Notes: a model not told the origin generated them from the sequence alone. Shown: positions 1,194-61,060, counted from the stretch's first letter. The stretch is DNA of 64,000 bases from Thermoplasmatota archaeon (GCA_038046725.1 JBBSVQ010000018.1:24168-88167), one strand, 5' to 3'. Program-made: numbers and translations.

Positions 1194-2080
1194 CCCGCCA
1201 CGGAATGCACGGAACCCAAGGAATCCGATCGGTTTCCCGTGATTCCGTGGATTCCGTGGGCCGACCCGTCGTTGGCATCGGCCAGGCGCACGGCGCCGTC
1301 ACCATCCTCAACGCCACCGCCACCGGCATCGGCTGCGCCTTGGCCGTCGAGGCCGGTGCGTTTGCGCGCTGGAGCTGGAAAGGCGACGGCCTCGTCTTCG
1401 AAGGCGAGACGGACGACCGGCTGGCCCGCGCCGTGCAACAGCTGTGCGGCGGAGGCGCAGCGCGCGTCCAGTCGACGACGGCCTTCGCGCCGGCTCGCGG
1501 CCTCAAGACGAGCTCCAGCGCGGCAACGGCCATGCTGCGCGCGGCGCACGCCGCCCGCGCAGCCGACGTGGACGACTGGGCCCTCCTTCGCACGGCGGTT
1601 GCCGCCTGCCGGCAGGCGGGCGTGACCCTCACGGGGGCCCTCGACGACCAGGCCGCCGTGACGCTCGGCGGCTGCCACCTCACGGACAACCGCCGCGATG
1701 CGGTCCTGCAGGCCTTGCCTGCCGAGCGCTGGCACGTGGCGGTGTGGGTCCCCGACCAAGCATTGCCCAAGGGACGCTTGCACGGCCTCGATTTGACGCC
1801 CGTGGTCAAGGACGCCCGCGCCGCTGAGCAGCTGGCGGCCCGTGGCAACCTCCCGGCAGCCATGACGCGCAACGGGGAGGCCTACACCAAGCTGTACGCC
1901 GGCGCCGGACTCCCCGTCAACGCGGAACCGGCGGCCGTCGCGCTTACGCATGGGGCCCTCGGCGCGGGCCTGTCGGGGACCGGGCCCGCCGTCGCCGCCC
2001 TCTTCGAGGCCGCCGTCACGCTGCCCGACGTGGCTGGCGGGGCCTGGACCTGGACGCGCGCCGTGGAGGCCCCGCGATGA
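1190..2080 (+). CDS. aroK: Archaeal (GHMP-type) shikimate kinase
   Basis: GAVTILNATATGIGCA N-terminal motif, GLKTSSSAA ATP loop, TLTGALDD, GLSGTGPA. TTG overlaps the aroE stop; start could instead be GTG at about 1247/1256. Confidence 0.85.
   Translation: MTRHGMHGTQGIRSVSRDSVDSVGRPVVGIGQAHGAVTILNATATGIGCALAVEAGAFARWSWKGDGLVFEGETDDRLARAVQQLCGGGAARVQSTTAFAPARGLKTSSSAATAMLRAAHAARAADVDDWALLRTAVAACRQAGVTLTGALDDQAAVTLGGCHLTDNRRDAVLQALPAERWHVAVWVPDQALPKGRLHGLDLTPVVKDARAAEQLAARGNLPAAMTRNGEAYTKLYAGAGLPVNAEPAAVALTHGALGAGLSGTGPAVAALFEAAVTLPDVAGGAWTWTRAVEAPR
1198..1259. repeat. Family A triplicated-unit hairpin (CACGGAA units)
   Basis: CCACGGAATGCACGGAACCCAAGGAA ... TTCCCGTGATTCCGTGGATTCCGTGG. Confidence 0.8.
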
Positions 2081-3378
2081 AGCCGCACGCCGTCGAAGTG
2101 CGACCCGGCCGCATCGACGGGACCGTGACGGCGCCGCCGAGCAAGTCGCAGACGCACCGCGCCTTCCTCCTCGCTGCACAATCCGTCGTGCCGTGCACCG
2201 TGCAGTCGCCACTGCTCGCCGACGACACCCGCGCCACGCTGTCCTGCCTCTTGGCGCTGGGGGCCCGCATCCACCTCGACCCCGACCGCCCGGAAACGGT
2301 GCAATTCCTGCCGGCCTCGCTGCGCGCGCCCACGCAAGCCCTGGACTGCCGCAACTCCGGCACCACGCTGCGCATCCTGAGCGCGACCGCGGCCCGTCTC
2401 GGACAACCGGTCACTCTCACGGGCGACGACTCCCTGCGCGAGCGGCCGAACGGGGCCCTGCACGACGCCTTGCGCGCACGCGGGGCCACCGTGGAGTCCC
2501 GCGACGGAAAAGCCCCCGTCACCGTGCGCGGCCCCCTGCGACCCGGCTCCGTGCGCCTGCCTGCCGGGTCGAGCAGCCAGTACGCGTCCGCGCTGTTGCT
2601 GTCGTTGCCCATGCTCGCCGGCCCCTCCATCCTCGACGTCGAGGCCCCCGTCGCCTCGGCTCCCTACCTCGAAGTCACACTCGACACGGCACGAGCCTTC
2701 GGACTTGCAATCCAACGCAGCGCCGACCGCTTCGCCATGCCGGGCGGATCGCTTCCGCGCGCCGACGCCTTCACCGTCGAGGGCGATTGGTCGGCCGCCG
2801 CCTTCCCCTTGGCTGCGGCTGCCGTGACGGGCGGCTCCGTGACCGTGCAAGGATTGCGCGCGGACTCCATGCAAGGCGACCGCGCCATCCTCGGGCACCT
2901 GCAATCCTTCGGCGCAAGCCTCGGACCTGGGGATTCCCTGCGCGGCGGTCCCCTGCACAGCCCGGGCGTCATCGACGTCAGCCAGACCCCCGACCTGTTT
3001 CCGGCACTCGTCGCCGTCGCGGCTTGCGCGCGCGGCACGACCACGTTCACGGGCGGAGCCAACCTGCGCCACAAGGAATCCGACCGCATCGCCGCCATGG
3101 CCGACGGCCTCAGCCGCCTGGGCGCCGACGTCCGCGAGACGCCGGACGGCCTCGTCGTCGCCGGGGGGCAACCCCTGCGCGGCGCGACCCTGGCGTCGCA
3201 CGGCGACCACCGGGTCCACATGGCCCTGTGCGTGGCGGCCCTCGCGGCGCAAGGTCCAAGCACCCTCGACGACCCTGCCGCAGCCGCCGTGAGCTATCCC
3301 GGCTTCCACGCCGACCTCGCCGCCCTCGGCGCCGACGTGCGCCTGTTGCAGGGCAACCGCACCGTGGTGTCGGCATGA
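2077..3378 (+). CDS. aroA: EPSP synthase
   Basis: PPSKSQTHRA, CRNSGTTLR, SSQYASALL, LRHKESDRI, DHRVHM motifs; ATGA overlap with aroK. Confidence 0.95.
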   Translation: MKPHAVEVRPGRIDGTVTAPPSKSQTHRAFLLAAQSVVPCTVQSPLLADDTRATLSCLLALGARIHLDPDRPETVQFLPASLRAPTQALDCRNSGTTLRILSATAARLGQPVTLTGDDSLRERPNGALHDALRARGATVESRDGKAPVTVRGPLRPGSVRLPAGSSSQYASALLLSLPMLAGPSILDVEAPVASAPYLEVTLDTARAFGLAIQRSADRFAMPGGSLPRADAFTVEGDWSAAAFPLAAAAVTGGSVTVQGLRADSMQGDRAILGHLQSFGASLGPGDSLRGGPLHSPGVIDVSQTPDLFPALVAVAACARGTTTFTGGANLRHKESDRIAAMADGLSRLGADVRETPDGLVVAGGQPLRGATLASHGDHRVHMALCVAALAAQGPSTLDDPAAAAVSYPGFHADLAALGADVRLLQGNRTVVSA

Positions 3379-4514
3379 ACACCTTCGGCCGCCGTTTCCG
3401 CGTGAGCCTCTTCGGCGAATCGCATGGCGCGGGCGTCGGCGTGCTCGTCGACGGCGTCCCGGCCGGCCAACCCGTCGACGTCGCGCGCCTGCAGGCGGCC
3501 CTGGACGCCCGCCGCCCGGGAACGTCGCGCCTCGTCAGCGCCCGCAAGGAATCCGACAGGGCGCAGATTCTCTCCGGCGTCCATCGCGGCCGGGCCACTG
3601 GCGCGCCGCTTGCCGTTTGGGTCGCCAACGAGGACGCCGACAGCAAATCCTACGTCGACGTGGCGACGGTGCCACGCCCAGGCCACGCCGACTGGGTCAA
3701 CCACGTGTGGAGCGGCGGCAACGCCGACTTGCGCGGCGGCGGGCACGCATCCGGCCGCCTGACCGCCGGCCTCGTCGCAGCAGGCGCGCTCGCGGATGGC
3801 CTGCTGGCCCCGCTCGGCATCGCATGCGCCGCGCACGTCACGCAGGTCGGCGCCATCGCGGGTCCCGTTGGCACGTTGTCAGCGGCGCAAATGGCGAAGG
3901 GGCGCGCATCCCCCGTCGGGACGGCCCACAAGATGCTGGAGGGCCGCATGGTCGCCGTCGTCGAAGCGGCGCGCGCGGCCGGGGACTCCATCGGAGGCGC
4001 AGTCGCCTTCGCTGCGGACGGGCTCCCCGTCGGCCTCGGTGACCCGTGGATGGATCCCTTGGAGTCCACGCTCGCGCACCTCCTCTTCGCGGTCCCCGCA
4101 GTCAAGGCCGTGTCGTTCGGCGAAGGCGAGGGAGCCGCAGCCATGGCAGGCTCGGCCCACAACGACGCCTACGCGCTCAAGTCGGGTCGCATCCGGCCGA
4201 CGACGAACCACGCGGGGGGCATCCTGGGCGGCCGCAGCACGGGTGAACGGCTGTGGGGGCAATGCACGGTCAAGCCGGCGTCGAGCATCGCGCGCGAGCA
4301 GGTCACCGCGGACGTCGCAACGGGCAAATCCCGCAAGGTCAAGGTCACGGGTCGCCACGACCCCTGCATCGCCATCCGGGCCGCGCCGGTCATCGCGGCT
4401 TGCTTGTCCATCGCGCTCGCCGATGCCGTGCTGCTGGGTCGGGAGCAAGGGTTGGAAGGTTGCTGGCCGGCCAAGGCGAAGGCCCCTGGCCGAGCAACGG
4501 CGCGTGACCAGTGA
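3375..4514 (+). CDS. aroC: Chorismate synthase
   Basis: MNTFGRRFRVSLFGESHG, PRPGHAD, RGGGHASGRLTA, NHAGGILGG, GRHDPCI; ATGA overlap with aroA. Confidence 0.95.
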   Translation: MNTFGRRFRVSLFGESHGAGVGVLVDGVPAGQPVDVARLQAALDARRPGTSRLVSARKESDRAQILSGVHRGRATGAPLAVWVANEDADSKSYVDVATVPRPGHADWVNHVWSGGNADLRGGGHASGRLTAGLVAAGALADGLLAPLGIACAAHVTQVGAIAGPVGTLSAAQMAKGRASPVGTAHKMLEGRMVAVVEAARAAGDSIGGAVAFAADGLPVGLGDPWMDPLESTLAHLLFAVPAVKAVSFGEGEGAAAMAGSAHNDAYALKSGRIRPTTNHAGGILGGRSTGERLWGQCTVKPASSIAREQVTADVATGKSRKVKVTGRHDPCIAIRAAPVIAACLSIALADAVLLGREQGLEGCWPAKAKAPGRATARDQ

Positions 4515-4523
4515 ATCGGTCCC

Positions 4524-4545
4524 GTCCAACGTCTTCCGACGCCGA
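4524..4545 (-). repeat. Family B right-end fragment
   Basis: GTCCAACGTCTTCCGACGCCGA. Confidence 0.5.
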
Positions 4546-4570
4546 GCACGCCCTTCGGCCAGCCCCGCTT

Positions 4571-4618
4571 GCCGCGGATTGGCACGGACAATCCGTGGGC
4601 ATCCGTGCAATCCGTGGC
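4571..4618. repeat. Family A hairpin
   Basis: GCCGCGGATTGGCACGGA ... ATCCGTGCAATCCGTGGC. Confidence 0.75.
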
Positions 4619-4699
4619 TAGTTCGGGCGCCGTCAGTCCCCATGGACGCAACCGGGAAGCCCCGTTTGCAATGGACGTAAACGGCCATCCTGTCCACGC

Positions 4700-4712
4700 A
4701 AGCTCTAAGCGG
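4700..4712 (+). promoter_or_regulatory. Candidate TATA-like element of the his operon
   Basis: AAGCTCTAAG lies 27 nt before ATG 4737. A similar AACGCTCTAAAG lies about 24 nt before the minus-strand ATG at 17594. Confidence 0.45.
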
Positions 4713-4736
4713 CCGACCCTGCTGCGTCGACCGAGC

Positions 4737-4781
4737 ATGCTTCTGGCCTGCCTCGCCCTGCACACCGTGCATCATGGGTGA
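4737..4781 (+). CDS. Putative his leader peptide MLLACLALHTVHHG
   Basis: ATG CTT CTG GCC TGC CTC GCC CTG CAC ACC GTG CAT CAT GGG TGA; three His codons in the last six codons, directly upstream of hisG. Confidence 0.5.
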   Translation: MLLACLALHTVHHG

Positions 4782-5827
4782 GTGCAAGCCAGGCGCCGCC
4801 GACCCGCAACCGCTTTTCGTGCGTGGCCGGCTCCCCTGGTGAACGAATGACCCCAGCCCCGCCCACGTCCCGCCCCCCGCGCACTCCAGCCGCCACCGCC
4901 CTGCCCCGCGATTCAGCTCGCGCCCCGGCCCGTTCCCCGGCCCGCGCCCCCGCAATCCAACGCCGTGCCCTGCGCCTGGCCATCCCGAACAAGGGCCGAT
5001 TGAGCGACGACTGCGTCGACTTGCTGCGCCGCGCCGGCATCCCACTGCAGGGTTCGTCCGAGCGTCGCCTGTTCGCAGGGGCCCTCGATGGCCGCATGCA
5101 GATCCTCTTCGTGCGCGCCCGCGACATCCCCGCCTACGTCGCCGCCGGCACCGTGGACGCCGGCATGACCGGCCTCGACGTCGTCAAGGAATCGCAAGTC
5201 AAGGTCCGCGACCTGCTCGACCTGCGCTTCGGCGCCTGCCGACTCGTGCTCGCGGTCCCCCATGAGCAGGCGGCCAAGGGACCCAAAGACATCGCGGACG
5301 GCTCGCGCATCGCCACCACGTACCCCAACCTGACCAAGGCGTACTTCGCCAAAGCCCGGCGCCGGGTGCGCATCGTCGGCGTCTCGGGCGCCTGCGAAGT
5401 GGCCCCCATGCTCGGCGTCGCCGACGCCATCACGGACCTCGCCTCGTCGGGCAGCACCCTCGCAATGAACCATTTGCGCGAGGTCAGCACCCTGCTGCAC
5501 TCCACGTGCCACCTCATCGCTCCCGCCAAGACGGACGCGGCCGCCAAGGATGAGCTGGACCGCCTGCGCTTCGCCCTCGGCTCCGTCCTGGCCGCCCGCG
5601 GCAAACGCTACCTCCTGGCCGACGTGCCCCGCAAGGCGCTTCCAGAAATCCAGGCGTTTCTCCCAGGCGTCGCCGGCCCCACAGTCGTCGACATCGCCGG
5701 CCACAAGGACCTCGTCGCCATCCAGGTCGTCGTCGACGAATCCGAGGTGTACGACGCCGTGTCGCGCCTCAAGGCCCTTGGCGGCCGCGGCATCCTCGTC
5801 ATGCCCATCGACCGCATGGTGGCTTGA
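4778..5827 (+). CDS. hisG: ATP phosphoribosyltransferase, long form with C-terminal regulatory domain
   Basis: LRLAIPNKGRL, VRARDIP, RIATTYP, SGACEVAP, DLASSGSTL. Start uncertain (GTG 4778 or ATG 4847); Pro/Ala-rich N-terminal extension. Confidence 0.95.
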   Translation: MSASQAPPTRNRFSCVAGSPGERMTPAPPTSRPPRTPAATALPRDSARAPARSPARAPAIQRRALRLAIPNKGRLSDDCVDLLRRAGIPLQGSSERRLFAGALDGRMQILFVRARDIPAYVAAGTVDAGMTGLDVVKESQVKVRDLLDLRFGACRLVLAVPHEQAAKGPKDIADGSRIATTYPNLTKAYFAKARRRVRIVGVSGACEVAPMLGVADAITDLASSGSTLAMNHLREVSTLLHSTCHLIAPAKTDAAAKDELDRLRFALGSVLAARGKRYLLADVPRKALPEIQAFLPGVAGPTVVDIAGHKDLVAIQVVVDESEVYDAVSRLKALGGRGILVMPIDRMVA

Positions 5828-5870
5828 CGATGCGCGCACGAAGCGTCAAGCCCGTCGGGGGGTCGCCCTG

Positions 5871-8332: not shown

Positions 8333-8979
8333 CGACCTGGACGGTGCTGGACTACGGTGTCGGCAACCTGCACAGCCTCGCCAAGGCCCTCACCGCAGTG
8401 GGCGCGAAGGTCAAGGTCACCGCCCGCCCCGAGGACCTCGCGGGCGCGGACGTCGCCGTCCTCCCGGGCGTCGGGGCTTTCGGCGCCGTCATGGACTGCC
8501 TCGCCCCGGCGGGCATGGCCCTGCGCCGGCGCCACGCGGACGGCCGGCCGACCCTCGGCATCTGCATCGGAGCCCAAGTGCTGTACGCGGCCAGCGACGA
8601 GACGCCCGGGGCCAAGGGCCTCGGCATCTTCCCCGGCACGGTGCGTCGCCTGCCCGCATCCGCAGGCAAGGTGCCGCACATGGGTTGGAACACCCTCGAG
8701 CCGGCGCCATCGGGCGCGGCCTCCGACAACCCTTCAGGGCTCGGTTTGCAGGATTCCTTGTTCGAAGGCGTCCCCGCGGGCAGCCACGTGTACTACGTGC
8801 ACGGCTACGCAGCGCCCGTCGGACCCGAGACCGTGGCCAGCACCCGCTACGGCACGGTTTTCACGGCGGCCCTGCGTCAAGGCGCCACCGTGGGAGTCCA
8901 GTTCCACCCCGAGAAGTCCAGCGCCGTCGGGCGGCGCATCCTTGCCAACGCCGTGCGCGACCTGGAGGCTCACGCATGA
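8329..8979 (+). CDS. hisH: Imidazole glycerol phosphate synthase, glutaminase subunit
   Basis: DYGVGNLHS, LPGVGAF, LGICIGAQ, PHMGWN, YYVHGY, QFHPEKS. Confidence 0.95.
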   Translation: MTTWTVLDYGVGNLHSLAKALTAVGAKVKVTARPEDLAGADVAVLPGVGAFGAVMDCLAPAGMALRRRHADGRPTLGICIGAQVLYAASDETPGAKGLGIFPGTVRRLPASAGKVPHMGWNTLEPAPSGAASDNPSGLGLQDSLFEGVPAGSHVYYVHGYAAPVGPETVASTRYGTVFTAALRQGATVGVQFHPEKSSAVGRRILANAVRDLEAHA

Positions 8980-10417: not shown

Positions 10418-10428
10418 CATGGGCCGAC

Positions 10429-10585
10429 CCATCCACCGATGACACCGATGTCACCGATGCGGGAACCCATCGGTGGGAATCGGTGAGCATCGGTGGATGG
10501 TCCTTCGCGAGGCCCCGACCGTCCGCCGATGACGCCAATCCCGCCGATGCTGCAGCATCATCGGCGCCATCGGCGCGATCGGCGG
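10429..10585. repeat. Two tandem family A hairpins between hisB and hisF
   Basis: CCATCCACCGATGACACCGATGTCACCGATG...CATCGGTGGGAATCGGTGAGCATCGGTGGATGG, then CCGCCGATG...ATCGGCGG. Confidence 0.85.
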
Positions 10586-10613
10586 TTCCGTCGGCACGCA
10601 GTGCGGTGCTCGC

Positions 10614-11393: not shown

Positions 11394-11417
11394 CCGCCTG
11401 CCGCGGGCGGTGACGGC

Positions 11418-12595: not shown

Positions 12596-12883
12596 GCGCC
12601 CGTTCTGGGCTTTCACGCAGGAACAACGTCTTGTGACTCCGACGCGGGGGACGAGGTCAAGCCACTGAGGCCAGGCTTGCCATCGCCGGGCGCCGCGCCC
12701 GACGCGTGGGGGACCTCGGATTCAACTGATTCCGGGCAAATTTGCCGAGAATCAGCTCAATCCAAGGTCCCCCAAACTCGCGGCGGCATCCGACTCGGCG
12801 CCGGGTTTCGCCAGGTCGTTCGGCTGGAAGTCGCCGCCGTCGGCGTCGGAAGACGTTGGACTTGTGCGAGGAAGAACGCGCGC
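12596..12883 (+). mobile_element. Family B MITE-like element
   Basis: Left GCGCCCGTTC...CAACGTCTTGTGACTCCGAC; right GTCGGCGTCGGAAGACGTTGG...GAACGCGCGC. Confidence 0.7.
12708..12773. repeat. Family A-like hairpin nested in a family B element
   Basis: GGGGACCTCGGATTCAACTGATT...AATCAGCTCAATCCAAGGTCCCC. Confidence 0.7.
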
Positions 12884-12949
12884 GGGCGACGCCCTCCGTG
12901 CAAATCCGTGCAATCCGTGGCCCTTGGACGGCGGGCCGGTGCGTCGCGC

Positions 12950-14317: not shown

Positions 14318-15769
14318 ATGCGCCTGCTCCTTGCAGTCCCCTTCCTGCTTGCCATCCTGGCCGGCTGCGTCAGCGACAACGATGGCCAGGACCCTGCCCC
14401 GCCCGTCGTCGGTGACGGCCGCCTCCTGCTCACCGACCTCCTGAACCAGACCGTCGCCAACTTGGCGAACATGACGTTCGAGTCCTCCATGGTGTACGCG
14501 GCCGTGAGCGTCGCCAACGACCTGTACGAGCCCACCATCGACGTGTGCGACGACGGCTCCATCTACATCACCGGCCACACCATCCTCGTCGACACCACGG
14601 GCGCCCCCGTCTTCGGCAGCCATGACGACGGCAAGACCTGGGCCCAGCTGCCCCTGTTGCAGTCGCTTGCCTCGCCGCTCTTCGTGCAAGGCGCCACGCC
14701 GCCCCCTTCGGACGAGATCTTCCTGTCCTGCGGCGACAACGGCTGGCTGTACGGCGTCGACATCACGCTGGCCACCTACCCCATCAACGCCTGGGACGGC
14801 TACGGCACCCGCCACGCCTACCACAACCCCAATGCGTACAACGAGGCCGAGGTCGTCACCGACGCGCAGACGGAGACCCAATGCGTCCCGGTGCCCGCCA
14901 AGGACCGCCCCTGGGGCGCATACGCCAACGGCACCCTGCTCCTGGTGAGCAACCCGGCCGGCGGCCCCGCCCAAGTCGGCGTCATGACCGCCCCGCCCGC
15001 CACGCCCGTGGCCTTGGGCACGGTCGTCAATGACATCCAGTGGAACCTGTGCGCCGGCCCCGGCGGCTCGATCCCGGGTGTCCCCGACATCCGCCACGAC
15101 GGCTTCTTCGGCGTTCCGCAGCTGTCCGGCGGCTCGCTCATGATCGTCGTGGGCAACCGCGACGACATCGCGGCCACCAACATCGTCGAGGCGTTCCCCG
15201 TCGACAGCCTCGGGGAGATCACCTCCTACTACGGCCACGTCGCCTTCGACACGCCGGGAACGATGTTCGTCGGCATCACGAACAACACCTGGCACGTCGA
15301 GCAGGTCAACGGCACGGACTTCCTTGGCCGCCCCACGGTCAGCAACGTCAACGTCGCCGATGACGGCCAGTTGCTCTTCGCCGTCAGCCTCGACGACGGC
15401 AGCACGTTCGTCAACCGCACCTACACGGTGCCCGGCAAGCCGGTGCGCCACTTCTACATGGACGCCAACGAGCAGGGCGCCGGCGCCCTCGTCGTCTGGG
15501 CCATCGACGGCTCCACGAAGAACGCCAACAACAACACTGCGGCCTGGGACTGGTACGTCGGCCACCTGCAGGTGGACGCCACCGGCGCCCCCGAGCTCAC
15601 CGGCGTCTACCTCGCCATCAATGAAGGGCCGCAGCCCAGCGCCCACGTCACCGGCGCCGCCGTCGGCCCCGATGGGCGCGCCTACCTCGCCATGTACGAA
15701 GGCGACAAGACGACACCGCTGAGCGTCTTCATCCAGCGCTCCGGCCCGACGCTGCCGAGCTGGATGTAG
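14318..15769 (+). CDS. Lipoprotein with BNR/Asp-box repeats (sialidase-like beta-propeller)
   Basis: Lipobox LLAILAGC; YEPTIDV; Asp boxes SHDDGKTW and SLDDGSTF. Confidence 0.7.
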   Translation: MRLLLAVPFLLAILAGCVSDNDGQDPAPPVVGDGRLLLTDLLNQTVANLANMTFESSMVYAAVSVANDLYEPTIDVCDDGSIYITGHTILVDTTGAPVFGSHDDGKTWAQLPLLQSLASPLFVQGATPPPSDEIFLSCGDNGWLYGVDITLATYPINAWDGYGTRHAYHNPNAYNEAEVVTDAQTETQCVPVPAKDRPWGAYANGTLLLVSNPAGGPAQVGVMTAPPATPVALGTVVNDIQWNLCAGPGGSIPGVPDIRHDGFFGVPQLSGGSLMIVVGNRDDIAATNIVEAFPVDSLGEITSYYGHVAFDTPGTMFVGITNNTWHVEQVNGTDFLGRPTVSNVNVADDGQLLFAVSLDDGSTFVNRTYTVPGKPVRHFYMDANEQGAGALVVWAIDGSTKNANNNTAAWDWYVGHLQVDATGAPELTGVYLAINEGPQPSAHVTGAAVGPDGRAYLAMYEGDKTTPLSVFIQRSGPTLPSWM

Positions 15770-15795
15770 TCGCCGGCCCGAGGCGACGACTGGCC

Positions 15796-15984
15796 GCGCG
15801 CGTTCATCCCCGCAAGCATCCAACGTCTTGTGCCCCCAACGTCGTCCGTGACAGGCAGAGACGTTCGAAGCGCGCGGCGAAGCCGCGCGAGGCGGCGCCC
15901 CGCGCCGCCATTCATCATCGCGGGGTTGTCGTCGTCGGAGTCGTCACAAGGAGGTTGACTTGTGCGAAGGCCCGGAACGGGCGC
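15796..15984 (-). mobile_element. Family B MITE-like element
   Basis: Same termini in reverse; core GCGGCGCCCCGCGCCGCCA. Confidence 0.72.
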
Positions 15985-24420: not shown

Positions 24421-24574
24421 CAAACGTCAGTTGACAACCAACTGGCAAACGCCAGTTGACAACGTTGGGTGACGGCGGGGGCTTCGCTTCGCTCAGCCCC
24501 CGGGAGAACCCCGCTCGGCGCCGGCGCTTCGCCTGCCGGCGGCCAAACCGCGTCGCCCTGCCAATCGCTTGAAC

Positions 24575-24744
24575 GCGCGCGTTCCTTCTCGCACAAGTCC
24601 AACGCCTTCCGACGCCGACGTCGGCGGCTTGCTCATGCGACACGCTGCCAAGAGGCGCCCCGCGCAGCCATCCCTCGTCTTGGTGTGGCCGTCGCCGGAG
24701 CCGTCGGAAGACGTTGGCCCGACATGAAAGCCCAGAACGGGCGC
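24575..24744 (-). mobile_element. Family B MITE-like element
   Basis: GCGCGCGTTC...CCAACGCCTTCCGACGCCGAC; core GGCGCCCCGCGC; ...CCCAGAACGGGCGC. Confidence 0.72.
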
Positions 24745-26080: not shown

Positions 26081-26095
26081 GAGACGCCGCCCAAC

Positions 26096-26158
26096 GAGCC
26101 ACGCAATCCACGGGGCCAAGGGAACGGCGGTTCCCTGTCTTCCGTGGATTCCGCGGCT
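26096..26158. repeat. Family A hairpin
   Basis: GAGCCACGCAATCCACGG ... CCGTGGATTCCGCGGCT. Confidence 0.75.
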
Positions 26159-26185
26159 GGTCGGGGGCTGGCCTTGGTTCGCTGT

Positions 26186-29649: not shown

Positions 29650-29813
29650 GCGCCCGTTCGGTGAGCCATGCTGATGCCATGACTGTGACGCCGACGGCGA
29701 CGACCAGCAGAACGTGGTGAATGGCGGCGCGGGGCGCCGCTGCGAATGACGTTCAGTGGGCAAACCGCTGTCGGCGTCGGAAGTCACTGGCTTGTGCGAG
29801 GGGGCCCGCGCGC
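29650..29813 (+). mobile_element. Family B MITE-like element
   Basis: GCGCCCGTTCGGTG...GTGACGCCGACGGCG; core TGGCGGCGCGGGGCGCCGC; GTCGGCGTCGGAAG...TTGTGCGAG. Confidence 0.7.
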
Positions 29814-32877: not shown

Positions 32878-32886
32878 GACCAACAA

Positions 32887-33548: not shown

Positions 33549-35618
33549 ATGACGGACGAGGCTACCCTCCGCCGGACCGAACCGGCCCTCCTGCCACCCC
33601 CCGCAGTTTGGATGGCAAACCAGCCCTTCGTGACCACGGCGGACGTCAAGGTCCCCGAGAAACTGCTCGACCAGGTCATCGGCCAGGACCACGCCGTCAC
33701 CGTCGTGCGCAAGGCCGCCGAGCAGAAGCGCCACGTCATGCTCATCGGCGACCCCGGAACCGGGAAATCCATGCTCGCCCGGGCCATGACGGAGTTCCTG
33801 CCCAAAGAGGAGCTCGAGGACGTCATCGCGTACCCGAACCCGGAGGACCAGAACACGCCGCGCATTCGCGTCGTTCCCGCCGGCAAGGGCAAGGAAATCG
33901 TGGACGCGCAGAAGTTCGAGGCCCGCAAGAAACAGGAGCAACGCGGCTTCCTCATGATGGTCCTCATGCTGACCGTCGTCGGCCTCAGCCTCTTCATTGC
34001 CTTCACCACCGGGCAGTACCAGACCATCCTTTACGGCCTGCTCGGCGCCATGCTCGTGTTCTTCCTGTTCCGCTCGGCGGGCATGCAGCGCAGCGTGCAG
34101 ATGGTTCCCAAGCTCCTCGTCGGCCATGACCCCGATGAAGTGGCGCCCTTCGTCGACGCGACGGCCGCCCACTCGGGCGCCCTGCTCGGCGACGTCCGGC
34201 ACGACCCGTTCCAGGCCGGCGGCCTCGAGACCCCCGCGCACGACCGCGTCGAGGCCGGCGCCATCCACAAGGCCAACCGCGGCGTGCTCTACATCGACGA
34301 GATCAACACGCTGCACCTGCCCAGCCAGCAGCACCTGTTGACCGCCATTCAGGACCGCCGCTTCCAAATCACGGGTCAATCGGAGCGCTCGTCGGGCGCC
34401 ATGGTGAAGACCGAACCCGTGCCGTGCAACTTCATCCTGGTTGCCGCAGGCAACCTGGATGCTCTCCAAGGCATGCACCCGGCCTTGCGCTCACGCATCC
34501 GCGGCTACGGCTACGAAGTGTACGTCCGCGACCAAATGGACGACACCGAGGAGAACCGCCAAAAGCTGGTGCGTTTCGTCGCCCAGGAAGTCATCCGCGA
34601 CGGCAAGATCCCGCACTTCGACAAGTCGGGCGTCGCCGAGATCATCCACGAGGCGCAGCGCCGCAGCGGCCAGAAGGGCAAGTTGACGCTGCGCCTGCGT
34701 GAATTGGGCGGCCTCGTGCGCGTCGCCGGCGACCTCGGCAAAGAGGACCAGGCCGCCGTGGCAACCTCCGCGCACGTGCTGCGCGCCAAGAGCATCGCTC
34801 GCTCACTTGAGCAGCAGATCTACGACCGCCACATCGAGCACAAACAGAAGTACCAACTCATCCACACCGAAGGCGTCGCCGTCGGCATGGTGAACGGCCT
34901 CGCCGTCTTCAGCGCCGACAACGGCATGAGCGAGCACTCCGGCATCGTGATGCCCATCGTCTCCGAAGTCACACCGGCCTCGAGCCGCGGCGAAGGCAAG
35001 ATCATCGCCACGGGCAAACTCGGGGAAATCGCGAAGGAGGCTGTGCAGAACATCTCGGCCATCTTCAAGAAGTTCCTCGCCGAGGACGTGTCAAACCACG
35101 ACGTGCACATCCAGTTCGTCCTCGCCCACGAAGGCGTGGAAGGCGACTCCGCGTCGGTGTCCATCGCGACCGCCGTCATGTCCGCCTTGAGCCGCGTTCC
35201 CATCCGCCAGGACGTCGCCATGACCGGCAGCCTGTCCGTGCACGGCCTCGTGCTGCCCGTGGGCGGCGTCACGGCCAAGATTGAGGCCGCCGCCAAGATT
35301 GGCATCAAGAAGGTCCTCATCCCGAAGGCCAACCTCGTCGATGTGCTCATCGAGGACGACTTCGTCGACAAGATCGAAGTCGTTCCGTGCGACACCATCT
35401 ACGACGTCCTCGAGCACGCCCTCGATGACCACCCGAAGAAGGCGGAACTGTTGGCCAAGCTGCGCACCCTCGAGACCAACTTGCCCCGGGGGCCCACGAA
35501 GGCCGTGCCGGTCCCCGCCCGCGAGCTGCCGACGAAGGACGACATCCCGTCGGAAGACATCCCGAAGCCCATTCGCCGCCGGGCCCCCGTCAAGCCGCCC
35601 GCGACGCCGGCACCCTAG
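33549..35618 (+). CDS. lonB: Archaeal membrane-bound ATP-dependent protease LonB
   Basis: IGDPGTGKS Walker A, TM insert, LYIDEI, EGDSAS catalytic Ser, GGVTAK catalytic Lys; CCTTAAAT upstream. Confidence 0.96.
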   Translation: MTDEATLRRTEPALLPPPAVWMANQPFVTTADVKVPEKLLDQVIGQDHAVTVVRKAAEQKRHVMLIGDPGTGKSMLARAMTEFLPKEELEDVIAYPNPEDQNTPRIRVVPAGKGKEIVDAQKFEARKKQEQRGFLMMVLMLTVVGLSLFIAFTTGQYQTILYGLLGAMLVFFLFRSAGMQRSVQMVPKLLVGHDPDEVAPFVDATAAHSGALLGDVRHDPFQAGGLETPAHDRVEAGAIHKANRGVLYIDEINTLHLPSQQHLLTAIQDRRFQITGQSERSSGAMVKTEPVPCNFILVAAGNLDALQGMHPALRSRIRGYGYEVYVRDQMDDTEENRQKLVRFVAQEVIRDGKIPHFDKSGVAEIIHEAQRRSGQKGKLTLRLRELGGLVRVAGDLGKEDQAAVATSAHVLRAKSIARSLEQQIYDRHIEHKQKYQLIHTEGVAVGMVNGLAVFSADNGMSEHSGIVMPIVSEVTPASSRGEGKIIATGKLGEIAKEAVQNISAIFKKFLAEDVSNHDVHIQFVLAHEGVEGDSASVSIATAVMSALSRVPIRQDVAMTGSLSVHGLVLPVGGVTAKIEAAAKIGIKKVLIPKANLVDVLIEDDFVDKIEVVPCDTIYDVLEHALDDHPKKAELLAKLRTLETNLPRGPTKAVPVPARELPTKDDIPSEDIPKPIRRRAPVKPPATPAP

Positions 35619-35671
35619 TTTCGGCCGGTCGTCTCACGAGCCGCGGATTTCGCGAATGACGGCGGACTTCC

Positions 35672-35872
35672 GCGCCCGTTCTGGGCTCCCACGACAATCC
35701 AGCGCCTTGTGACGCCGACGGCGGCCACGACGTCAACCGGATGATGCCGTCCATTGGCGGCGCGGGGCGCCGCCTCGGCGCGCTTCGCGCGCCGCTTCGT
35801 CAAATGGTTGAGTTGGAAGTCGCCGGAGTCGGCGGAGGAAGTCGTTGGACCGTAGCGAGGATGAACGCGCGC
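35672..35872 (+). mobile_element. Family B MITE-like element
   Basis: GCGCCCGTTCTGGG...TTGTGACGCCGACGGCG; core TGGCGGCGCGGGGCGCCGC; GTTGGAC...GAACGCGCGC. Confidence 0.75.
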
Positions 35873-40777: not shown

Positions 40778-40858
40778 CCGCCACGCCCGCCCCCAAAGCT
40801 CCTCCTCCCAAGCCACAGATTTCGCAGATCAACGCAGATGTTGGACCAGCGGACGACG

Positions 40859-41045
40859 GCGCGCGTTCCTCCTCGCAATCGCCCAGCGTCTTCCGACGCC
40901 GACGTCGTGGGTTTGCACGTGCTGGATGCTGCGAAACGCCGCGCAAAGCGCGGCGAGCGGCGCCCCGCGCCGCCAATCTGCGTCATCGGCTAGCCGTGCC
41001 CGGAGTCGTCACAAGGAGGTTGACTGGCATGGCATGAACGGGCGC
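40859..41045 (-). mobile_element. Family B MITE-like element
   Basis: GCGCGCGTTC...GTCTTCCGACGCCGAC; core GCGGCGCCCCGCGCCGCCA; GTCACAAGGAGGTTGAC...GAACGGGCGC. Confidence 0.75.
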
Positions 41046-42387: not shown

Positions 42388-42426
42388 CCGCGCCAACCCC
42401 GGATTGGTCGCGGCAGGTCGCCCGCC

Positions 42427-42488
42427 AACCACGAATTGCACGAATGGCACGAAACCGCCAATTCGTGGGCTTCGTGCAATTCGTGGTT
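42427..42488. repeat. Family A hairpin (CACGAAT units)
   Basis: AACCACGAATTGCACGAATGGCACGAA ... TTCGTGGGCTTCGTGCAATTCGTGGTT. Confidence 0.88.
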
Positions 42489-42494
42489 CAGCGT

Positions 42495-46018: not shown

Positions 46019-46143
46019 GGGCTTTCCGACAAGGGGGTCCTATATCATCGTGGTGGGCCTCGGATTCCCTCGGGTTCAACGATTTTTCCCCAGGATTCAA
46101 CGCATTTGGGCGTGAACCGACCCGGGTTCCTAGCAAGGCGAAC

Positions 46144-48435: not shown

Positions 48436-48500
48436 GTGGCGTGTAGGATTCGCGCGTTCAAGGCCTCGCCGACTGTGCCTGAGCAGCTAAGCGAGCCCCG

Positions 48501-48563
48501 GCCACGGATTGGCACGGATTCTCACGGAGACGGGTTCCGTGTCAATCCGTGCCAATCCGTGGC
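48501..48563. repeat. Family A hairpin (CACGGATT units)
   Basis: GCCACGGATTGGCACGGATTCTCACGGA ... TCCGTGTCAATCCGTGCCAATCCGTGGC. Confidence 0.9.
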
Positions 48564-48613
48564 TCGTCCGGGGGTGGCGCGGGGCTTTTGACCTGCCCCT
48601 GACTGGCCGCGCC

Positions 48614-49759: not shown

Positions 49760-49913
49760 GCGCAGCACACCCCTTGCGCAGACGAGCCGCAGATCTCGCT
49801 GATTCCCGCTGATGTTGGCAGTCATCCTTGCGGACTCCGTTCAATCCCGTCGGAAATCCGTTCAATCCGCATTCCGTAGGGTTCATGTCCATCCTCGTCT
49901 GGCGCCCCATGCC

Positions 49914-50622: not shown

Positions 50623-50705
50623 GCCGCGAATTTCGGGAAATGGCGCGAATGCCGACGGGCAGCAATGAGTCCGTCGCCTTTGCGAGGATTGGCGCGATTC
50701 GCGGC
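50623..50705. repeat. Family A hairpin (CGCGAAT units)
   Basis: GCCGCGAATTTCGGGAAATGGCGCGAAT ... ATTGGCGCGATTCGCGGC. Confidence 0.75.
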
Positions 50706-50729: not shown

Positions 50730-51731
<1,002 letters not shown>

Positions 51732-51735
51732 GCGA

Positions 51736-52161: not shown

Positions 52162-52216
52162 CGCGTGTTCGACTTCGACCGGGCTACTTGAACCGTTTGG
52201 CCGGTTGTCCAGGGCC

Positions 52217-54376: not shown

Positions 54377-54468
54377 GCCTCCTAGGCGCCCTTCCTGGTA
54401 CAAAGGGACATTGGTCTGGCCCTCGATGCCAGCCGGGGGAAGGCCGTCCCTCCGTTCGTTCCTCGCAG

Positions 54469-57009
54469 CTACGGCTGGCTGCCCGCAGGGGCACTGTCGG
54501 CGGGCGGTTCGACCTGCGGTTCGTCGTCGGCTGGCAGCACCGCCACCTGGGTGACCACGTCGCCGTCCGCCGTGTCCATGACCGTGACGCCTTGCGTCGC
54601 ACGGCCTTGGGCACGCAGTTGGACGGCCGGGATGCGCGTCACCATGCCCATGCGGGTGATGAGCAGCAGCGACTCGTCGCCGTGCACGGTGCGCACGGCC
54701 ACCACGGGGCCGTTGCGGTCGTTGACGACGATGGTGCGCACACCCTTGCCGCCACGGTGCGTCTTGCGGTACTCCTCGAGCTCGGTGCGCTTGCCGTACC
54801 CGTTGGCCGTCACGGACACCAAGGCGGTGCCGGGCTCGGCAAGGGCGAGGGAGACGACCTCGTCGCCCTGTTCGAGGGTGACGCCGCGGACGCCTGTGGT
54901 GTCGCGTCCCATGACGCGCACTTCGGACTCGTCGAAGCGGCAGGCCTGGCCCTGCTTCGTGGCCAGGATGACTTCCTGGTTGCCGTCGGTGCGGCGCACG
55001 GCCAGCAATTCGTCGCCCGCGTCGAGGTTGATGGCGATGATGCCGCCGGCGCGCACGTTGCCGAAGGCCGACAGGGCGGTGCGCTTGACCGTGCCCTGCT
55101 TGGTGGCGAACAGGAACGTGGCGCCCTCGACGTCGAAGTCCTTCACGGGGATGATGGTCTCCACGACTTCGTTGGCGTCGAGCTGCAGCAGGTTGACGAC
55201 CGGCTTGCCCTTGGCGACGCGCGACCCGGTGGGCACGCGGTGGCCCTTGAGCCAGTGCATGCGGCCGTGGTTGGTGAAGAAGCACAGCCAGTCGTGCGTG
55301 GAGCCGACGGTGGTCTCGACGACCTCGTCCTCCTCCTTCGTCGTCATTCCGCGGCTGCCCTTGCCGCCGCGGTGCTGCTCGCGCCACGTGTCCAGCGGCA
55401 TGCGCTTGAGGTAGCCGGCCGTCGTGAACAGGTAGACCGACTCCTCCTCGGGGATGAGCGACTCGTCGTCGATGTCAACGTCGCCGTCCTGGATCTCCGT
55501 GCGGCGTTTGTCGCCGAACTCGGCCTTGGACTTGAGGAGCTCCGCCTTGATGATGGCGTCCACGCGCTTCGGGTCGGCCAGGATGGCCTTGTAGTCGGCA
55601 ATCTGCGCGGTGAGGGTGGCGTGCTCCGTCTTGAGTTCGCCCGTCTCCAGGCTGGTCAGGCGTTGCAGGCGCATGTCGAGGATGGCCTTGCCTTGCAATT
55701 CCGAGAGTCCGAAGCGGGCGCGCAGGCCGGCCAGGGCCGTCTCCGGGTCGGCGCTGGCGCGAATCAGGGCCACGACGGCGTCGATGTTGGCCAGCGCGAT
55801 GAGCAGGCCGTCCAGGATGTGGGCGCGTGCTTCGGCCTTGGTGAGCTCGAACTGCGTGCGGCGGGTCACGACCTCGACGCGGTGGCGCAGGAAGACCTGC
55901 AGCAGCTCCTTGAGCCCCATCGTCTTGGGGCGGCCGTCGGCGAGGGCCAGGTTGTTGATGGCGAACGTCGACTGCAGCGCCGTGTGGTGCCAGAGCTGGT
56001 TGAGGACGACGTCGGTGATGGCGTCGCGCTTGAGCTCGATGACGAGGCGCATGCCGCGGCGGTCGGATTCGTCGCGCAGGTCCGAGATGCCTTCCAGCAC
56101 CTTGTCCTTGACGAGTTCCGCCATGTGGATGATGAGTTCCGACTTGTTGACCTGGTAGGGAATCTCCGTGAACACGATGCGCTCGCGGTCGGCGCCCATG
56201 CTCTCGACTTCGTGCCGGCCGCGCACGACGACCTTGCCGCGCCCCGTGGCGAGGCTGGCCCTGATGCCGGCCCGGCCGTGGATGATGCCGCCCGTCGGGA
56301 AGTCGGGTCCCTGCACGTCCTGCGCCAGGTCGAGGGGCGTGATGTCGGGGTTGTCGATGAGCTTCACGGCGGCATCGACGATCTCGCCGAGGTTGTGCGG
56401 CGCGACGTTCGTTGCCATGCCGACGGCGATGCCGGCGGAGCCGTTGACGAGCAGGTTGGGGAAGGCGGCCGGCATGACCAGTGGCTCTTCCAGCGAGGAA
56501 TCGAAGTTGGGCCCGAAGTTGACGGTCTGCTTGTCCAGGTCGGCCAGCAATTGGCCGGTGATCTTGGACAGGCGGGCCTCCGTGTACCGCATGGCGGCTG
56601 CGCCGTCGCCGTCGACGGAGCCGAAGTTGCCTTGGCCGTCGACGAGGGGGTAGCGCAGGCTCCATTCCTGCGCCATGCGCACCATCGCCTCGTACACGGA
56701 TGAATCGCCGTGCGGGTGGTACTTACCGAGGACTTCACCGACCACACGGGCGGACTTCTTGTACGCCGACGTGGGGCCCATGCCCAACTCGCCCATGGCG
56801 TACAGGATGCGGCGGTGGACGGGTTTGAGGCCGTCGCGGGCGTCCGGGAGGGCGCGGGCGACGATGACGGACATGGCGTAGTCTAGGAACGATTGGCGCA
56901 TCTCGGTCTCGACGGTGCGCGGAACGACCTGCTTGGCCATGATGGTCGGCGCGGGCGTGCCTGCGGGCGTCTCGTCGCCTTTCTTGGCGCGCGGCTTGGG
57001 GTCGGCCAT
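54469..57009 (-). CDS. gyrA: DNA gyrase subunit A
   Basis: [33 protein letters not shown] GyrA box, beta-pinwheel repeats. Confidence 0.97.
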
Positions 57010-57034
57010 CTAAGCCACCTCCGCCGACGACTCG

Positions 57035-57095
57035 GCCGCGAATTTCGCGAAACGACGCGAAGACGTTGTTCGCGAGCATTCGCGCGATTCGCGGC
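57035..57095. repeat. Family A hairpin between gyrB and gyrA
   Basis: GCCGCGAATTTCGCGAAACGACGCGAA ... TTCGCGAGCATTCGCGCGATTCGCGGC. Confidence 0.85.
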
Positions 57096-57112
57096 TCGTG
57101 GGCGTCGTCGAC

Positions 57113-59218
<2,106 letters not shown>

Positions 59219-59346
59219 CTAGAACGAGCGGAAACGGCCCTCCCGGGCCCGAACGGCGGGGCCGGAGGGGGAAGGTGGCCCGGGGCCCTCACAGCGCCCG
59301 CGCCAACCATCGCCCACGACGACCAAACAGGAATGCCGGGAGGCGG

Positions 59347-60015
59347 CTAGTTTGTGGTCGGGGCGGCGTGCGCCTCGGGCGCTGGGGGCCCGTTTTCGCC
59401 TGCGGCCGGCGCCTCGTCGGGCACATTGGCACCGCCCAGGTCCTCGGCCGGGCCGGCCGACTCGCCGCCGGCGTCCTTCGGCTGCGGCGCCGGCAAGCCG
59501 ACGAGCTTGGCCAACATGGCACGCACCTCTTCCTGGTTGGAGGCATCCAGCCCGAAGTACTCCGGGAACTGGTTCGTCGTCGTGAGAATCTTCGTGACCC
59601 CTTCCTCGCGCGCCTTGACCAGGCCGCGCCCGACGAGGTCGGGGATGTGCTCGTACACGCGAGTGCCAATCATGTCCACGAGCTCCGATTGCTTCATGGG
59701 CTGGTGGTAGGCGATGAGCGCGAGCGTCTTGAGGAGCTTCTTGGGAATCTCCGGCGGCGCAAACTTCGTGGCAGGCTCGGCGGCGGCGGTGCGGACCTGC
59801 ATGGCCCACTTCGTTCCCGCCTTCGAGATCTCAAGCACCGTGTCGCGGCCCTCGTACTCCTTCTGCAGCTCCTTGATGGCGAGCTTGATGGAGTCGGGGC
59901 TGAGGAAGGTCAGGGCGACAATCTCCTCGACGCTGACGGGTTTGCCGGCACTGAACAGGGCGGCCTCCACGACGTGGCGCGCGCCCATCTCGGTCATTCC
60001 CTTGTGATCGCTCAT
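59347..60015 (-). CDS. scpB: Segregation/condensation protein B
   Basis: VEAALFSAG, LKTLALIAYHQP, TTNQFPEYFGL; ATGA overlap with scpA. Confidence 0.92.
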   Translation of the reverse strand: MSDHKGMTEMGARHVVEAALFSAGKPVSVEEIVALTFLSPDSIKLAIKELQKEYEGRDTVLEISKAGTKWAMQVRTAAAEPATKFAPPEIPKKLLKTLALIAYHQPMKQSELVDMIGTRVYEHIPDLVGRGLVKAREEGVTKILTTTNQFPEYFGLDASNQEEVRAMLAKLVGLPAPQPKDAGGESAGPAEDLGGANVPDEAPAAGENGPPAPEAHAAPTTN

Positions 60016-60968
60016 GCCTTGACCTCCTCCGTGATGACGGCGGCTGCTTCGGGCAACTTGGGGCTGATCCAGATCTCGCCGCGGGGGAAGTTCTCCTGCG
60101 ACACCGTGATGCGACCCTCCTTGGTCAGGGCGAGGACGGACGTGAACGTCTGCACGAGGTCGCTGCGCTCCTTCTCGTACAGGGCGCTGAACGGCACGGG
60201 CTGCGACGGGTAGTCCAGGATGCGGGCCCACGTCTCCGCCATTTCGGCGGCGATGTCCTCGCGGTGCATCATGCCGCCAAGGCGGCCGCGCATTTTCCGG
60301 CGCAGCGACAGGCGGGCCTGCAGCTTCTGCTCGTTCAGCACAAGCCGTTGCTGCGACTCCCCGTGCACTTCCTCGAGGGCTCCGATGAGTTCCATCAAGG
60401 TGACGCGGCGGTCGCCCTTGTGGCGCACCTTCTCGTCAATGGGGGCGCGCGGCAGGGCGGCGATGCGCGAGTTGTAGTCCATCTGCTCGTCGCTGAAGCC
60501 GAAGTCCGCGATGTCCTCCCAGCCGGGGGCCTCCTCGTGCTGGTTGGCCAGGACGGCCCGGTCGGCGACCTCGTCACTCTGCAGCTTCAGGACGGTCCAG
60601 GCGAGCAGGATGATGCGGCCGGCGGTCACGATGTCCACGCCGCGTGCCTTGGCCTCGGCGAGGTAGGTCTGCGCGAACTTGGACAAGTCAATGTCCCAGG
60701 GGTCAAGGTGGTGCTGGATGACGAGCTCGAAGGCGATGGCGAGGTCGCGGTGGAAGCCGTCCTTCAACGCGACGTGCTCGCCATCCCGGGAGCCGGTGAC
60801 CATCTCGATGTACTCGGTGAGCTTCGAGCCGTCGTCGCCGTGCTGCGCCATGGCCTTGTGCCACAACAGGTGGCGCACGACGTTGGCGGTCTGCAGTGTC
60901 GTCTCGGACGGGGCGGGCTTCTCGATGGGCGAGAGGCGCAGCTGCGCGGCCTCGGTCTTGTCGGCCAT
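60012..60968 (-). CDS. scpA: Kleisin ScpA
   Basis: LDPWDIDL, AGRIILLAW, VTLMELIGAL, C-terminal winged helix (TFTSVLAL..G.I.VSQ); lies between smc and scpB. Confidence 0.85.
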   Translation of the reverse strand: MADKTEAAQLRLSPIEKPAPSETTLQTANVVRHLLWHKAMAQHGDDGSKLTEYIEMVTGSRDGEHVALKDGFHRDLAIAFELVIQHHLDPWDIDLSKFAQTYLAEAKARGVDIVTAGRIILLAWTVLKLQSDEVADRAVLANQHEEAPGWEDIADFGFSDEQMDYNSRIAALPRAPIDEKVRHKGDRRVTLMELIGALEEVHGESQQRLVLNEQKLQARLSLRRKMRGRLGGMMHREDIAAEMAETWARILDYPSQPVPFSALYEKERSDLVQTFTSVLALTKEGRITVSQENFPRGEIWISPKLPEAAAVITEEVKA

Positions 60969-60994
60969 CAGACACCCCCGCCGATGCCCGACGA

Positions 60995-61060
60995 GCCACG
61001 GATTGGCACGGATTGGCACGGAACGAGTGGGTTTCCGTGCTGGTCCGTGAAATCCGTGGC
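60995..61060. repeat. Family A hairpin between smc and scpA
   Basis: GCCACGGATTGGCACGGATTGGCACGGAA ... TTCCGTGCTGGTCCGTGAAATCCGTGGC. Confidence 0.88.

Follow-up and report, generated by a model that had tools for sequence, protein, structure and literature searches.

Dispersed hairpins of three phased units in a Thermoplasmatota archaeon share their units with the ends of GxxExxY genes

The DNA analysed here, hereafter the window, is a stretch of 64,000 nt from the assembly of a soil archaeon of the Thermoplasmatota (G000, C18:24168-88167; 2.07 Mb in 46 contigs, 68% G+C and about 86% complete). Relatives of its HisB and GxxExxY proteins carry the label Thermoplasmata or Thermoplasmatota archaeon. 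The window contains dispersed hairpins of 60-70 nt with arms built of three short phased units, several of which lie within gene runs; the aroE-aroK, hisB-hisF, gyrB-gyrA and smc-scpA contexts proposed in an initial annotation of this DNA were all confirmed by Pfam. We describe these hairpins and their relationship to small genes of the GxxExxY family, found elsewhere in the genome and bracketed by the same units.

A loose scan of the window returned six canonical hairpins and one false hit, compared with 0-1 in each of ten controls. The canonical hairpins number seven once the B-type copy is counted (1199-1258, 10434-10495, 10524-10584, 42430-42485, 48503-48561, 57037-57093 and 60997-61058), and there are also three to four degenerate or other-type hairpins (4575-4616, 12707-12774, 26090-26165 and about 46050-46100) and five single modules, each equivalent to one arm. 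We could not reproduce the count of at least 14 full hairpins given in the initial annotation, as seven are clear and a generous total is about 11. Rfam gave no match at gathering score within the window. The elements are listed below; letters designate subfamilies of unit core, and a strand is given where one was assigned.

1193..1264, E-like hairpin (CACGGAAT units, two plus two clear), spacer between aroE and a GHMP-type shikimate kinase gene; DNA fold z = -4.85.
4575..4622, partly decayed E-type element, spacer between aroC and the his operon leader; three-unit right arm (4592-4616) intact, left arm eroded; no element in the same spacer of close relatives L149 and L152.
10428..10501, A-type hairpin (CACCGATG three times per arm), hisB-hisF spacer; DNA fold -32.4 kcal/mol, z = -8.1; cognate gene outside the window, at G000 C1:143723-144166.
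10519..10590, B-type hairpin (CGCCGATG units), about 30 nt past the A-type hairpin in the hisB-hisF spacer, forming an A-B doublet.
12707..12774, palindrome (TGGGGGACCTCGGATTCAACTGATT...) of another subfamily, which also forms the ends of the GxxExxY gene at G000 C32:12377-12745.
12895..12919, strand -, single E-type three-unit module, after a box of a second repeat family (about 12824-12883).
26090..26165, degenerate hairpin (CCACGCAATCCACGG... / ...CCGTGGATTCCGCGG), convergent spacer; DNA fold z = -3.5.
35639..35668, strand +, weak single module (CGCGGATTT CGCGAATGA CGGCGGA), after the gene at 33549-35618; missed by strict scans.
40812..40839, strand +, single G-type module (CACAGATTT CGCAGATCAA CGCAGATG), adjoining a copy of the second repeat box.
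42425..42490, C-type hairpin (CACGAATTG units), convergent spacer; DNA fold z = -6.9; cognate gene at G000 C36:19960-20463.
46050..46100, degenerate copy of the CTCGGATTC/GGATTCAAC subfamily.
48498..48566, E-type hairpin (CACGGATTGG units, 10-nt period), divergent spacer; DNA fold z = -8.7.
49777..49813, strand +, single G-like module (CGCAGATCT CGCTGATTCC CGCTGATG), after an acyl-CoA dehydrogenase gene.
50625..50649, strand +, single D-type module (CGCGAATTT CGGGAAATGG CGCGAA).
57032..57098, D-type hairpin (CGCGAATTT units), gyrB/gyrA spacer.
60992..61063, E-type hairpin, smc/scpA spacer; DNA fold z = -7.8.

The hairpins are present where they had been annotated, and they are far above chance expectation in the genome as a whole: a strict scan (three occurrences of one 5-mer spaced 8-11 nt apart, accompanied by two or more reverse-complement copies nearby) found 132 elements, compared with none in a Markov-2 control, and exact 6-mer triples numbered 295 at period 9-10 versus 6-15 at periods 6-7, 12-13 and 15-16. 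Inverted-repeat and tandem-repeat searches returned arms of 27-36 nt, separated by a short gap, with micro-arrays of period 9/10 within each arm. A module of about 40 nt comprises a clamp of 3-6 nt, three 9-10-nt units with a conserved core of 6-8 nt (general form CRC-x-GA-W) and a short inner extension. Arms contain three units in the great majority of cases and never more than four, which rules out a slippage-type tandem array.

Pairing of modules throughout the genome yielded 188 pairs, together amounting to about 4.5% of its non-coding DNA. These are dispersed, imperfect palindromes, often found as inverted doublets, and about 89% are extragenic according to crude gene calls made in this analysis, which underlie all our genic and intergenic counts. 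In the 140 class I pairs the clamps face outwards, with a median of 15 nt between the detected arm cores. In the 48 class II pairs, nearly all of type A or B, the clamps face inwards around a middle part of fixed length (26-30 nt) and variable sequence. Class II resembles a circular permutation of the class I hairpin, and examples lacking outer partner arms occur at G000 C10:22431-22511, C14:80076-80156 and C40:39383-39462.

Genome-wide, at least 10 discrete subfamilies of unit core can be distinguished, each with between 5 and about 110 arms. These are A (CACCGATG, about 110 arms), B (CGCCGATG), C (CACGAATTG), D (CGCGAATTG), E (CACGGATTGG), F (CACTGAA), G (CGCAGAG) and H (CACAGAG), together with CGGGAA, CGCGGA and a CTCGGATTCAAC type. 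The initial annotation described a unit specific to each copy, which is true inside the single window but does not extend to the genome; likewise, the ACGAGC flank it reported is found in subfamilies D and E only, the others having ATC or AAC. A-B doublets occur in the same order in at least four loci (window 10434-10584; G000 C6:53290-53441, C11:189165-189315 and C40:72329-72491), suggesting either a composite unit or insertion beside an existing element.

Arms of the same subfamily are paired in 128 of the 140 class I elements, compared with 15% expected at random, and when one arm serves as anchor, its partner either matches almost perfectly (0-2 mismatches in 24) or no better than chance, few cases falling in between. 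The arm-to-arm covariation previously noted in the window was confirmed: in 36 elements trimmed to equal length and selected for intact cores, the score was 0.396, versus 0.179 ± 0.012 after shuffling (0/500) and 0.03-0.16 with slid partners. Covarying columns divide exactly by subfamily (for instance, AU:24 / GC:12), indicating that covariation occurs between a few subfamilies, each associated with a paralogous nuclease gene, and does not reflect compensatory changes in individual copies. Pairing is mostly lacking in the columns between cores (unpaired in 34/36 at 23/44; 22-23/36 at 14/53 and 22/45), and the last base of the inter-core spacer is complementary in just 3 of 65 cases, counted family by family. 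In family A, none of 35 elements has the same spacer pattern in both arms, about six being expected; typically, one arm has (A,T) and the other (T,A). These uncomplementary spacers and never-shared patterns indicate that the arms are not templated on each other and that the core sequence is conserved, not the stem, contrary to the earlier suggestion that structure prevails over sequence or that one arm is copied from the other. The two arms are distinct left and right ends, inherited together. We also tried to deduce element polarity from the family A spacer patterns by comparison with the gene-bearing cassette described below, but this was dropped because the cassettes of G000 and of its relative G012 disagree.

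A listing of unpaired modules exposed two long elements in which inverted modules surround a single open reading frame (ORF) of about 125 codons: C1:143723-144166, with A-type ends, and C36:19960-20463, with C-type ends. The coding sequences, C1:143723-144142 and C36:19987-20388, are both on the minus strand. Both deduced proteins match TIGR04256 (127 and 115 bits, for a cut-off of 35) and PF13366 PDDEXK_3 (122 and 108 bits, for a cut-off of 22), with E values of 1e-31 to 1e-37; they have no other match in Pfam or NCBIfam and do not qualify as GIY-YIG proteins (cd10448). A tblastn search of G000 identified eight GxxExxY paralogues of about 125 aa. In five of them, phased-unit arms of a single type flank the gene on either side (A, C, G-like, H and a CTCGGATT type), so that the A, C, G, H and CTCGGATT-type hairpins have units in common with the ends of five GxxExxY cassettes. 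A sixth paralogue is bracketed by a simpler inverted GGGAGAACACAGAA repeat, and the remaining two are a fragment with CGCGGA remnants and a gene with no visible arms. The GxxExxY gene is the only one that we found between matching arms, both here and in bacteria.

Several GxxExxY ORFs (G000 C1:143723-144166; L046, L052, L054, L055, L060 and L065) begin within the third unit of the left arm and run through the right arm, producing Ser/Val/Thr-rich tails such as TSVTSVSSV. Additionally, a conserved box RGGCCAAC-N4-GTCC/GGAC lies 50-75 nt upstream of archaeal GxxExxY ORFs (for instance, L049, L065, L060, L068 and G000 C36), inside the left arm in some loci and outside it in others. The GCCAAY box was ruled out as a universal part of the element, with 8 of 79 loci from the genome-contig scan (at least one of them archaeal) versus 4 of 79 in a control region, and is probably a lineage-specific promoter or leader.

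The genes and the hairpins share their phyletic distribution. All 13 genus genomes encode GxxExxY proteins, with 1-8 genes per genome, compared with just 1 of 27 further genomes from the family, order or class, and about 132 kb from four genomes outside the genus contained no real modules (one spurious hit). Nearly all loci from the genus, about 25, have inverted arms of two or three 9-nt units, and the unit differs by paralogue (CGCGGATT, CACTGAAK, ARCAGATG, CACGGGGAA, CGCCGAGC, CACGGAAS and others). Hairpin units coincide with those of the genome's own gene ends in four of seven sampled relatives within the genus (G012; G006; G009 and G001 jointly; G005). In the protein tree, clades follow unit type, the CACGAATT, CGCAGAWT and CACCGATG clades being supported at 96-99%.

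To survey the family, one genome per species was scanned with a five-sequence alignment, a 26-sequence alignment being too diverse for the scan, yielding 515 relatives, of which the best 80 (50-72% identical) span more than 12 bacterial phyla. Inverted arms of at least two CRCNGA units enclose the gene in 57 of 75 bacterial loci, with the canonical ATC-CRCAGATNN x3 in 56 of the 57. The initial annotation had mentioned, for bacteria, a link between such hairpins and GxxExxY genes, none of which it saw in the window; genes with the same three-unit arms indeed occur outside the window in G000, in all genomes of the genus and in those bacterial loci. When bacterial sequences were included in the tree, archaeal proteins with non-canonical units formed archaeal-only clades of 19 and 7 sequences, and those with canonical CRCAGAT units were placed apart. 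This topology suggests acquisition from bacteria and then diversification of the units within this archaeal lineage. Six IMG/VR viral contigs (L155-L160) also encode GxxExxY relatives (43-47% identity), and in L155, the one that was read, the arms around the gene have a period of 9 and yet another unit (CCGGTTCAT x2 plus CTGGTG), and a hairpin lies immediately upstream.

An alignment of 26 proteins showed G24, E27, Y30, E77, K79, Q91 and Y95 to be invariant and D67 to be conserved in at least 90%, so that both the GxxExxY motif and the D...E-x-K catalytic motif of PD-(D/E)XK nucleases (D67, E77 and K79) are present. A sequence search of the PDB found no relative. The AlphaFold model (predicted local distance difference test 91.6) was closest to Cas4 SSO0001, alkaline exonuclease, the nuclease domains of AdnAB/AddAB, MGME1, RecE and Exo5, with template-modelling scores of about 0.4-0.5; these enzymes act on single-stranded DNA (ssDNA) or DNA ends. 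As modelled, the GxxExxY protein has the Cas4/RecB-like fold of a PD-(D/E)XK nuclease, and its catalytic residues are intact. A 2012 survey of PD-(D/E)XK enzymes listed the function of PF13366 as unknown and described multiple transfers between bacteria and archaea (PMC3424549).

To examine turnover, we compared orthologous intergenic spacers. Exact family A modules number 70 in G000, 16 in G012, one in G003 and none in ten other genomes of the genus. The gyrB-gyrA spacer contains a D element in G000 and a C-type element in G012, with no three-unit element in the 12 other relatives read there (it is 9 nt long in G008); in G002 (L012) and G005 (L014) this spacer holds another GC-rich repeat, GGCCGAGCGCAGCGAGCGCC..., in inverted copies. 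The smc-scpA spacer is occupied by an E-type element in G000, an E-like one in G008 and CGGGGATT-type ones in G001 and G002, and measures only 3-15 nt in G012, G004 and G005; likewise, the spacer orthologous to that of the C-type hairpin at 42425..42490 is 3 nt long in G008. The hisB-hisF spacer is always occupied among lineages with HisB 88-91% identical, by A plus B in G000, B in two and D in one. Orthologous spacers that are empty, or filled by other subfamilies, indicate gain, loss and replacement at permissive sites and not conserved signals. Among spacers of at least 60 nt, elements occupy 49 of 164 convergent (30%), 96 of 683 tandem (14%) and 19 of 271 divergent ones (7%), and they sit a median of about 20 nt past the stop codon and about 50 nt ahead of the next start.

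From these observations, namely the architecture of the elements, their division into discrete subfamilies, the agreement between hairpin units and gene ends, a phyletic distribution common to genes and hairpins, the turnover of spacers, and the intact catalytic residues and Cas4/RecB-like fold of the protein, we consider it probable that the hairpins represent gene-less versions of a system with two components, a small PD-(D/E)XK GxxExxY nuclease and its recognition repeats. The full cassette consists of two inverted modules around each nuclease gene, and the far commoner form of two modules back to back and no gene; each paralogue is paired with its own unit sequence, also carried by the dispersed hairpins of that subfamily. 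As the likeliest mechanism, the cognate nuclease would read the three phased cores of an arm, probably on the single-stranded folded element or an extruded cruciform, and cut at or near the arms, with repair copying the element into new intergenic sites; selection would then leave surviving copies mainly just past stop codons. Among the roles put forward in the initial annotation, that of substrates for an enzyme acting in trans fits best, with the GxxExxY nuclease as the candidate enzyme.

Several points weigh against this proposal. Unit binding, cleavage and a spread or mobility of elements driven by the nuclease are steps that we infer, and no solo PD-(D/E)XK nuclease is known to act as a transposase. 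Subfamilies B, D, E and F, with more than 100 arms together, have no gene with an exactly matching unit in this 86%-complete assembly, and the density of hairpins does not obviously follow gene number across the samples from the genus. In five subfamilies we found neither a target-site duplication, direct repeats in the flanks being as in shuffled pairings at offsets of 4-12 nt, nor a copy-specific inverted repeat of the flanks. Moreover, no empty site could be aligned with a filled one, the best HisB relatives being only 88-91% identical, and a scan of metagenome contigs with exact 25-mers for near-identical strains found nothing. Finally, the strong conservation of cores in place could also mean a host-level function.

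A more far-reaching version, possible but on the doubtful side, is that GxxExxY proteins alone provide the enzyme for a pan-prokaryotic class of mobile hairpins that has gone unrecognised, characterised by three-unit reading with drifting specificity and by a folded, single-stranded, dumbbell-like intermediate, which could be opened at either end to give the class I and class II permutations. This archaeal genus shows at least 10 natural protein-unit pairs, and in that case the family would also offer a ready-made set of sequence-specific nucleases of ssDNA hairpins with readable specificity rules.

It is unlikely, albeit worth serious thought, that we are dealing with a host-level system in which repeats serve as labels of self DNA and are cut by the nuclease as ssDNA, for example during uptake, repair or conflict with foreign DNA; the repeats would spread by ordinary recombination or an unrelated route and would not be driven by the nuclease. 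Natural transformation is not known for this lineage, and the subfamily repertoires, which differ sharply among species of one genus, as well as sites that are gained, lost and swapped, are more like selfish turnover than a maintained host function. Nevertheless, the closest folds are those of ssDNA-processing nucleases, conservation of the cores in place is strong, target-site duplications are absent, and the architecture matches that of the closest published parallel, the NTS/SRM repeats and Ssn nucleases (Chenal et al., Nat Commun 2025; PMC11893778). Both comprise a small single-domain nuclease gene with hairpin repeats on both sides, hundreds of dispersed copies and homologues with their own repeat variants, spread over many phyla; Ssn homologues cut near their own repeat, as ssDNA (PMC11893778). 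Unlike Ssn, which is a GIY-YIG enzyme (cd10448), the GxxExxY protein is known here as a PD-(D/E)XK protein (PF13366) from its sequence and a model; the arms have three phased 9-10-nt units instead of a single short hairpin, and the host is archaeal.

Quite improbable, in our view, is that the hairpins are host RNA or DNA signals selected for structure (3'-end stabilisers, operon processing sites or cruciform anchors) and that the nuclease genes merely lie inside some of them. Their enrichment after genes, their very stable folds (z down to -8.7) and the occupied hisB-hisF spacer of all five closest lineages would agree with such a role, but inter-core spacers are uncompensated (3/65 paired), orthologous spacers of relatives are often 3-15 nt long with no element, and genera without GxxExxY genes also lack hairpins. 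Termination of transcription in archaea is independent of hairpins. There is no T-run 3' of the stems, the flanks in the window reading GGATGGTCC, GTTCAGCG, GCTCGTCC, GCTCGTGG and GCCTGGTC, and the hairpins are therefore not intrinsic terminators; this and their lack of retention at orthologous sites bear out the earlier remark that they are not simply terminators.

Very improbable is the possibility that these are REP-like (repetitive extragenic palindromic) repeats or miniature inverted-repeat transposable elements (MITEs), moved by a conventional transposase encoded elsewhere (REP-associated tyrosine transposase, RAYT/Y1; DDE; or IS200/IS605), with the GxxExxY genes as passengers. The likeness is real, since the elements are extragenic, palindromic and present in many copies. 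As with the REP, bacterial interspersed mosaic element and REPIN (REP doublet forming a hairpin)-RAYT systems of Proteobacteria, they are concentrated after genes and form inverted doublets in two configurations with distinct linkers, and the enzyme gene, present in single copy, lies between its own repeats, with repeat subfamilies matched to enzyme paralogues. However, PF01797 (Y1/RAYT) is absent from all 15 genomes (G000 and 14 relatives), although six control genomes were positive, indicating that the elements are not a REP/RAYT system; they also differ by lacking a REP head of GTAG type, by arms with tripled 9-nt units and by an enzyme of another superfamily. As in MITEs and transposons with multi-site ends (Mu, Tn7 and the subterminal repeats of En/Spm), gene-less elements correspond to the two ends of a gene-bearing one, and each end has several phased repeats, which are protein-binding in those transposons. 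Here, in contrast, there is no target-site duplication and no DDE transposase, in a survey that was not exhaustive, the nuclease of about 125 aa is the only product encoded and the sole gene between matching arms, and the 9-nt period is much shorter than known transposase sites. The 23S rRNA intervening sequences with S23p genes (PF05635) similarly hold a small ORF within long-stem inverted repeats and are sporadically distributed, but our elements lie outside rRNA and encode a different family; the four-helix-bundle PF05635 is not present in this genus, so that neither of the alternative partners named in the initial annotation, RAYT or four-helix-bundle genes, was found.

It can hardly hold that each copy evolves its own unit, with arms matched by templating (fold-back synthesis or gene conversion) or by compensatory stem selection, for despite the highly significant family-wide covariation between arms and the subfamily-specific bases common to the six units of an element, there are about 10 discrete subfamilies instead of differences copy by copy, the covarying columns split along subfamily lines, inter-core spacers are systematically unpaired and the two arms of family A elements never share a spacer pattern.

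Other repeats accompany the hairpins. A second dispersed family is a box of about 60 nt, ...CGTCGGCGTCGGAAGACGTTGGA-N4-TGCGAGGAGGAACGCGCGC, with 47 hits in the genome (at most three mismatches to the last 19 nt), no Rfam match and window copies at about 12824-12883 (+), 29754-29813 (+), 35813-35872 (+), 40818-40877 (-), 24534-24593 (-) and 15755-15814 (-). About eight of these boxes are followed, within 5-35 nt, by one three-unit module in reverse orientation, an association that accounts for two of the half copies listed in the initial annotation. Upstream of gyrB, an alternating CGCGTGCGCGCGTGCACGCGCGTG tract (window 59168-59201) adjoins a TTATCC/ATAA box; its position is conserved in G009 (L010:3142-3165) and G002 (L012:9483-9506), which makes the tract a retained element of this genus's gyrB promoter region. 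In G009 (L010), G001 (L011) and G005 (L014), the aligned scpB and scpA orthologue segments are separated by 440-475 nt, apparently extra coding sequence although no ORF was called, with three-unit hairpins of CGCGGATTT, CACGAATTG and CACCGATTG types; these hairpins would thus lie inside coding sequence.

Our best reading, by analogy, is that of a nuclease-plus-repeat partnership across bacteria and archaea, resembling REP/RAYT or NTS/Ssn but with a different enzyme. Neither GxxExxY proteins nor these repeat sequences are the subject of any paper that we found, and we did not encounter the partnership itself in the papers that could be searched. It would account for about 4.5% of the non-coding DNA of this genome, and for the presence of hairpins inside essential operons (his, gyr, smc-scp and aro) with no role as terminators. 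PF13366/TIGR04256 is a very large family whose function was listed as unknown in 2012 (PMC3424549) and, being tied to a defined DNA element, it gains a testable function. The GxxExxY fold would be the third, after HUH (RAYT) and GIY-YIG (Ssn), in which a small nuclease is in partnership with its own dispersed hairpins. Bacteria mostly have one unit, CRCAGAT, whereas in this genus the unit has diversified alongside the paralogues, which makes it useful as a source of natural protein-site pairs for examining how a nuclease of 125 residues may read 9-nt units, and with what cross-specificity.

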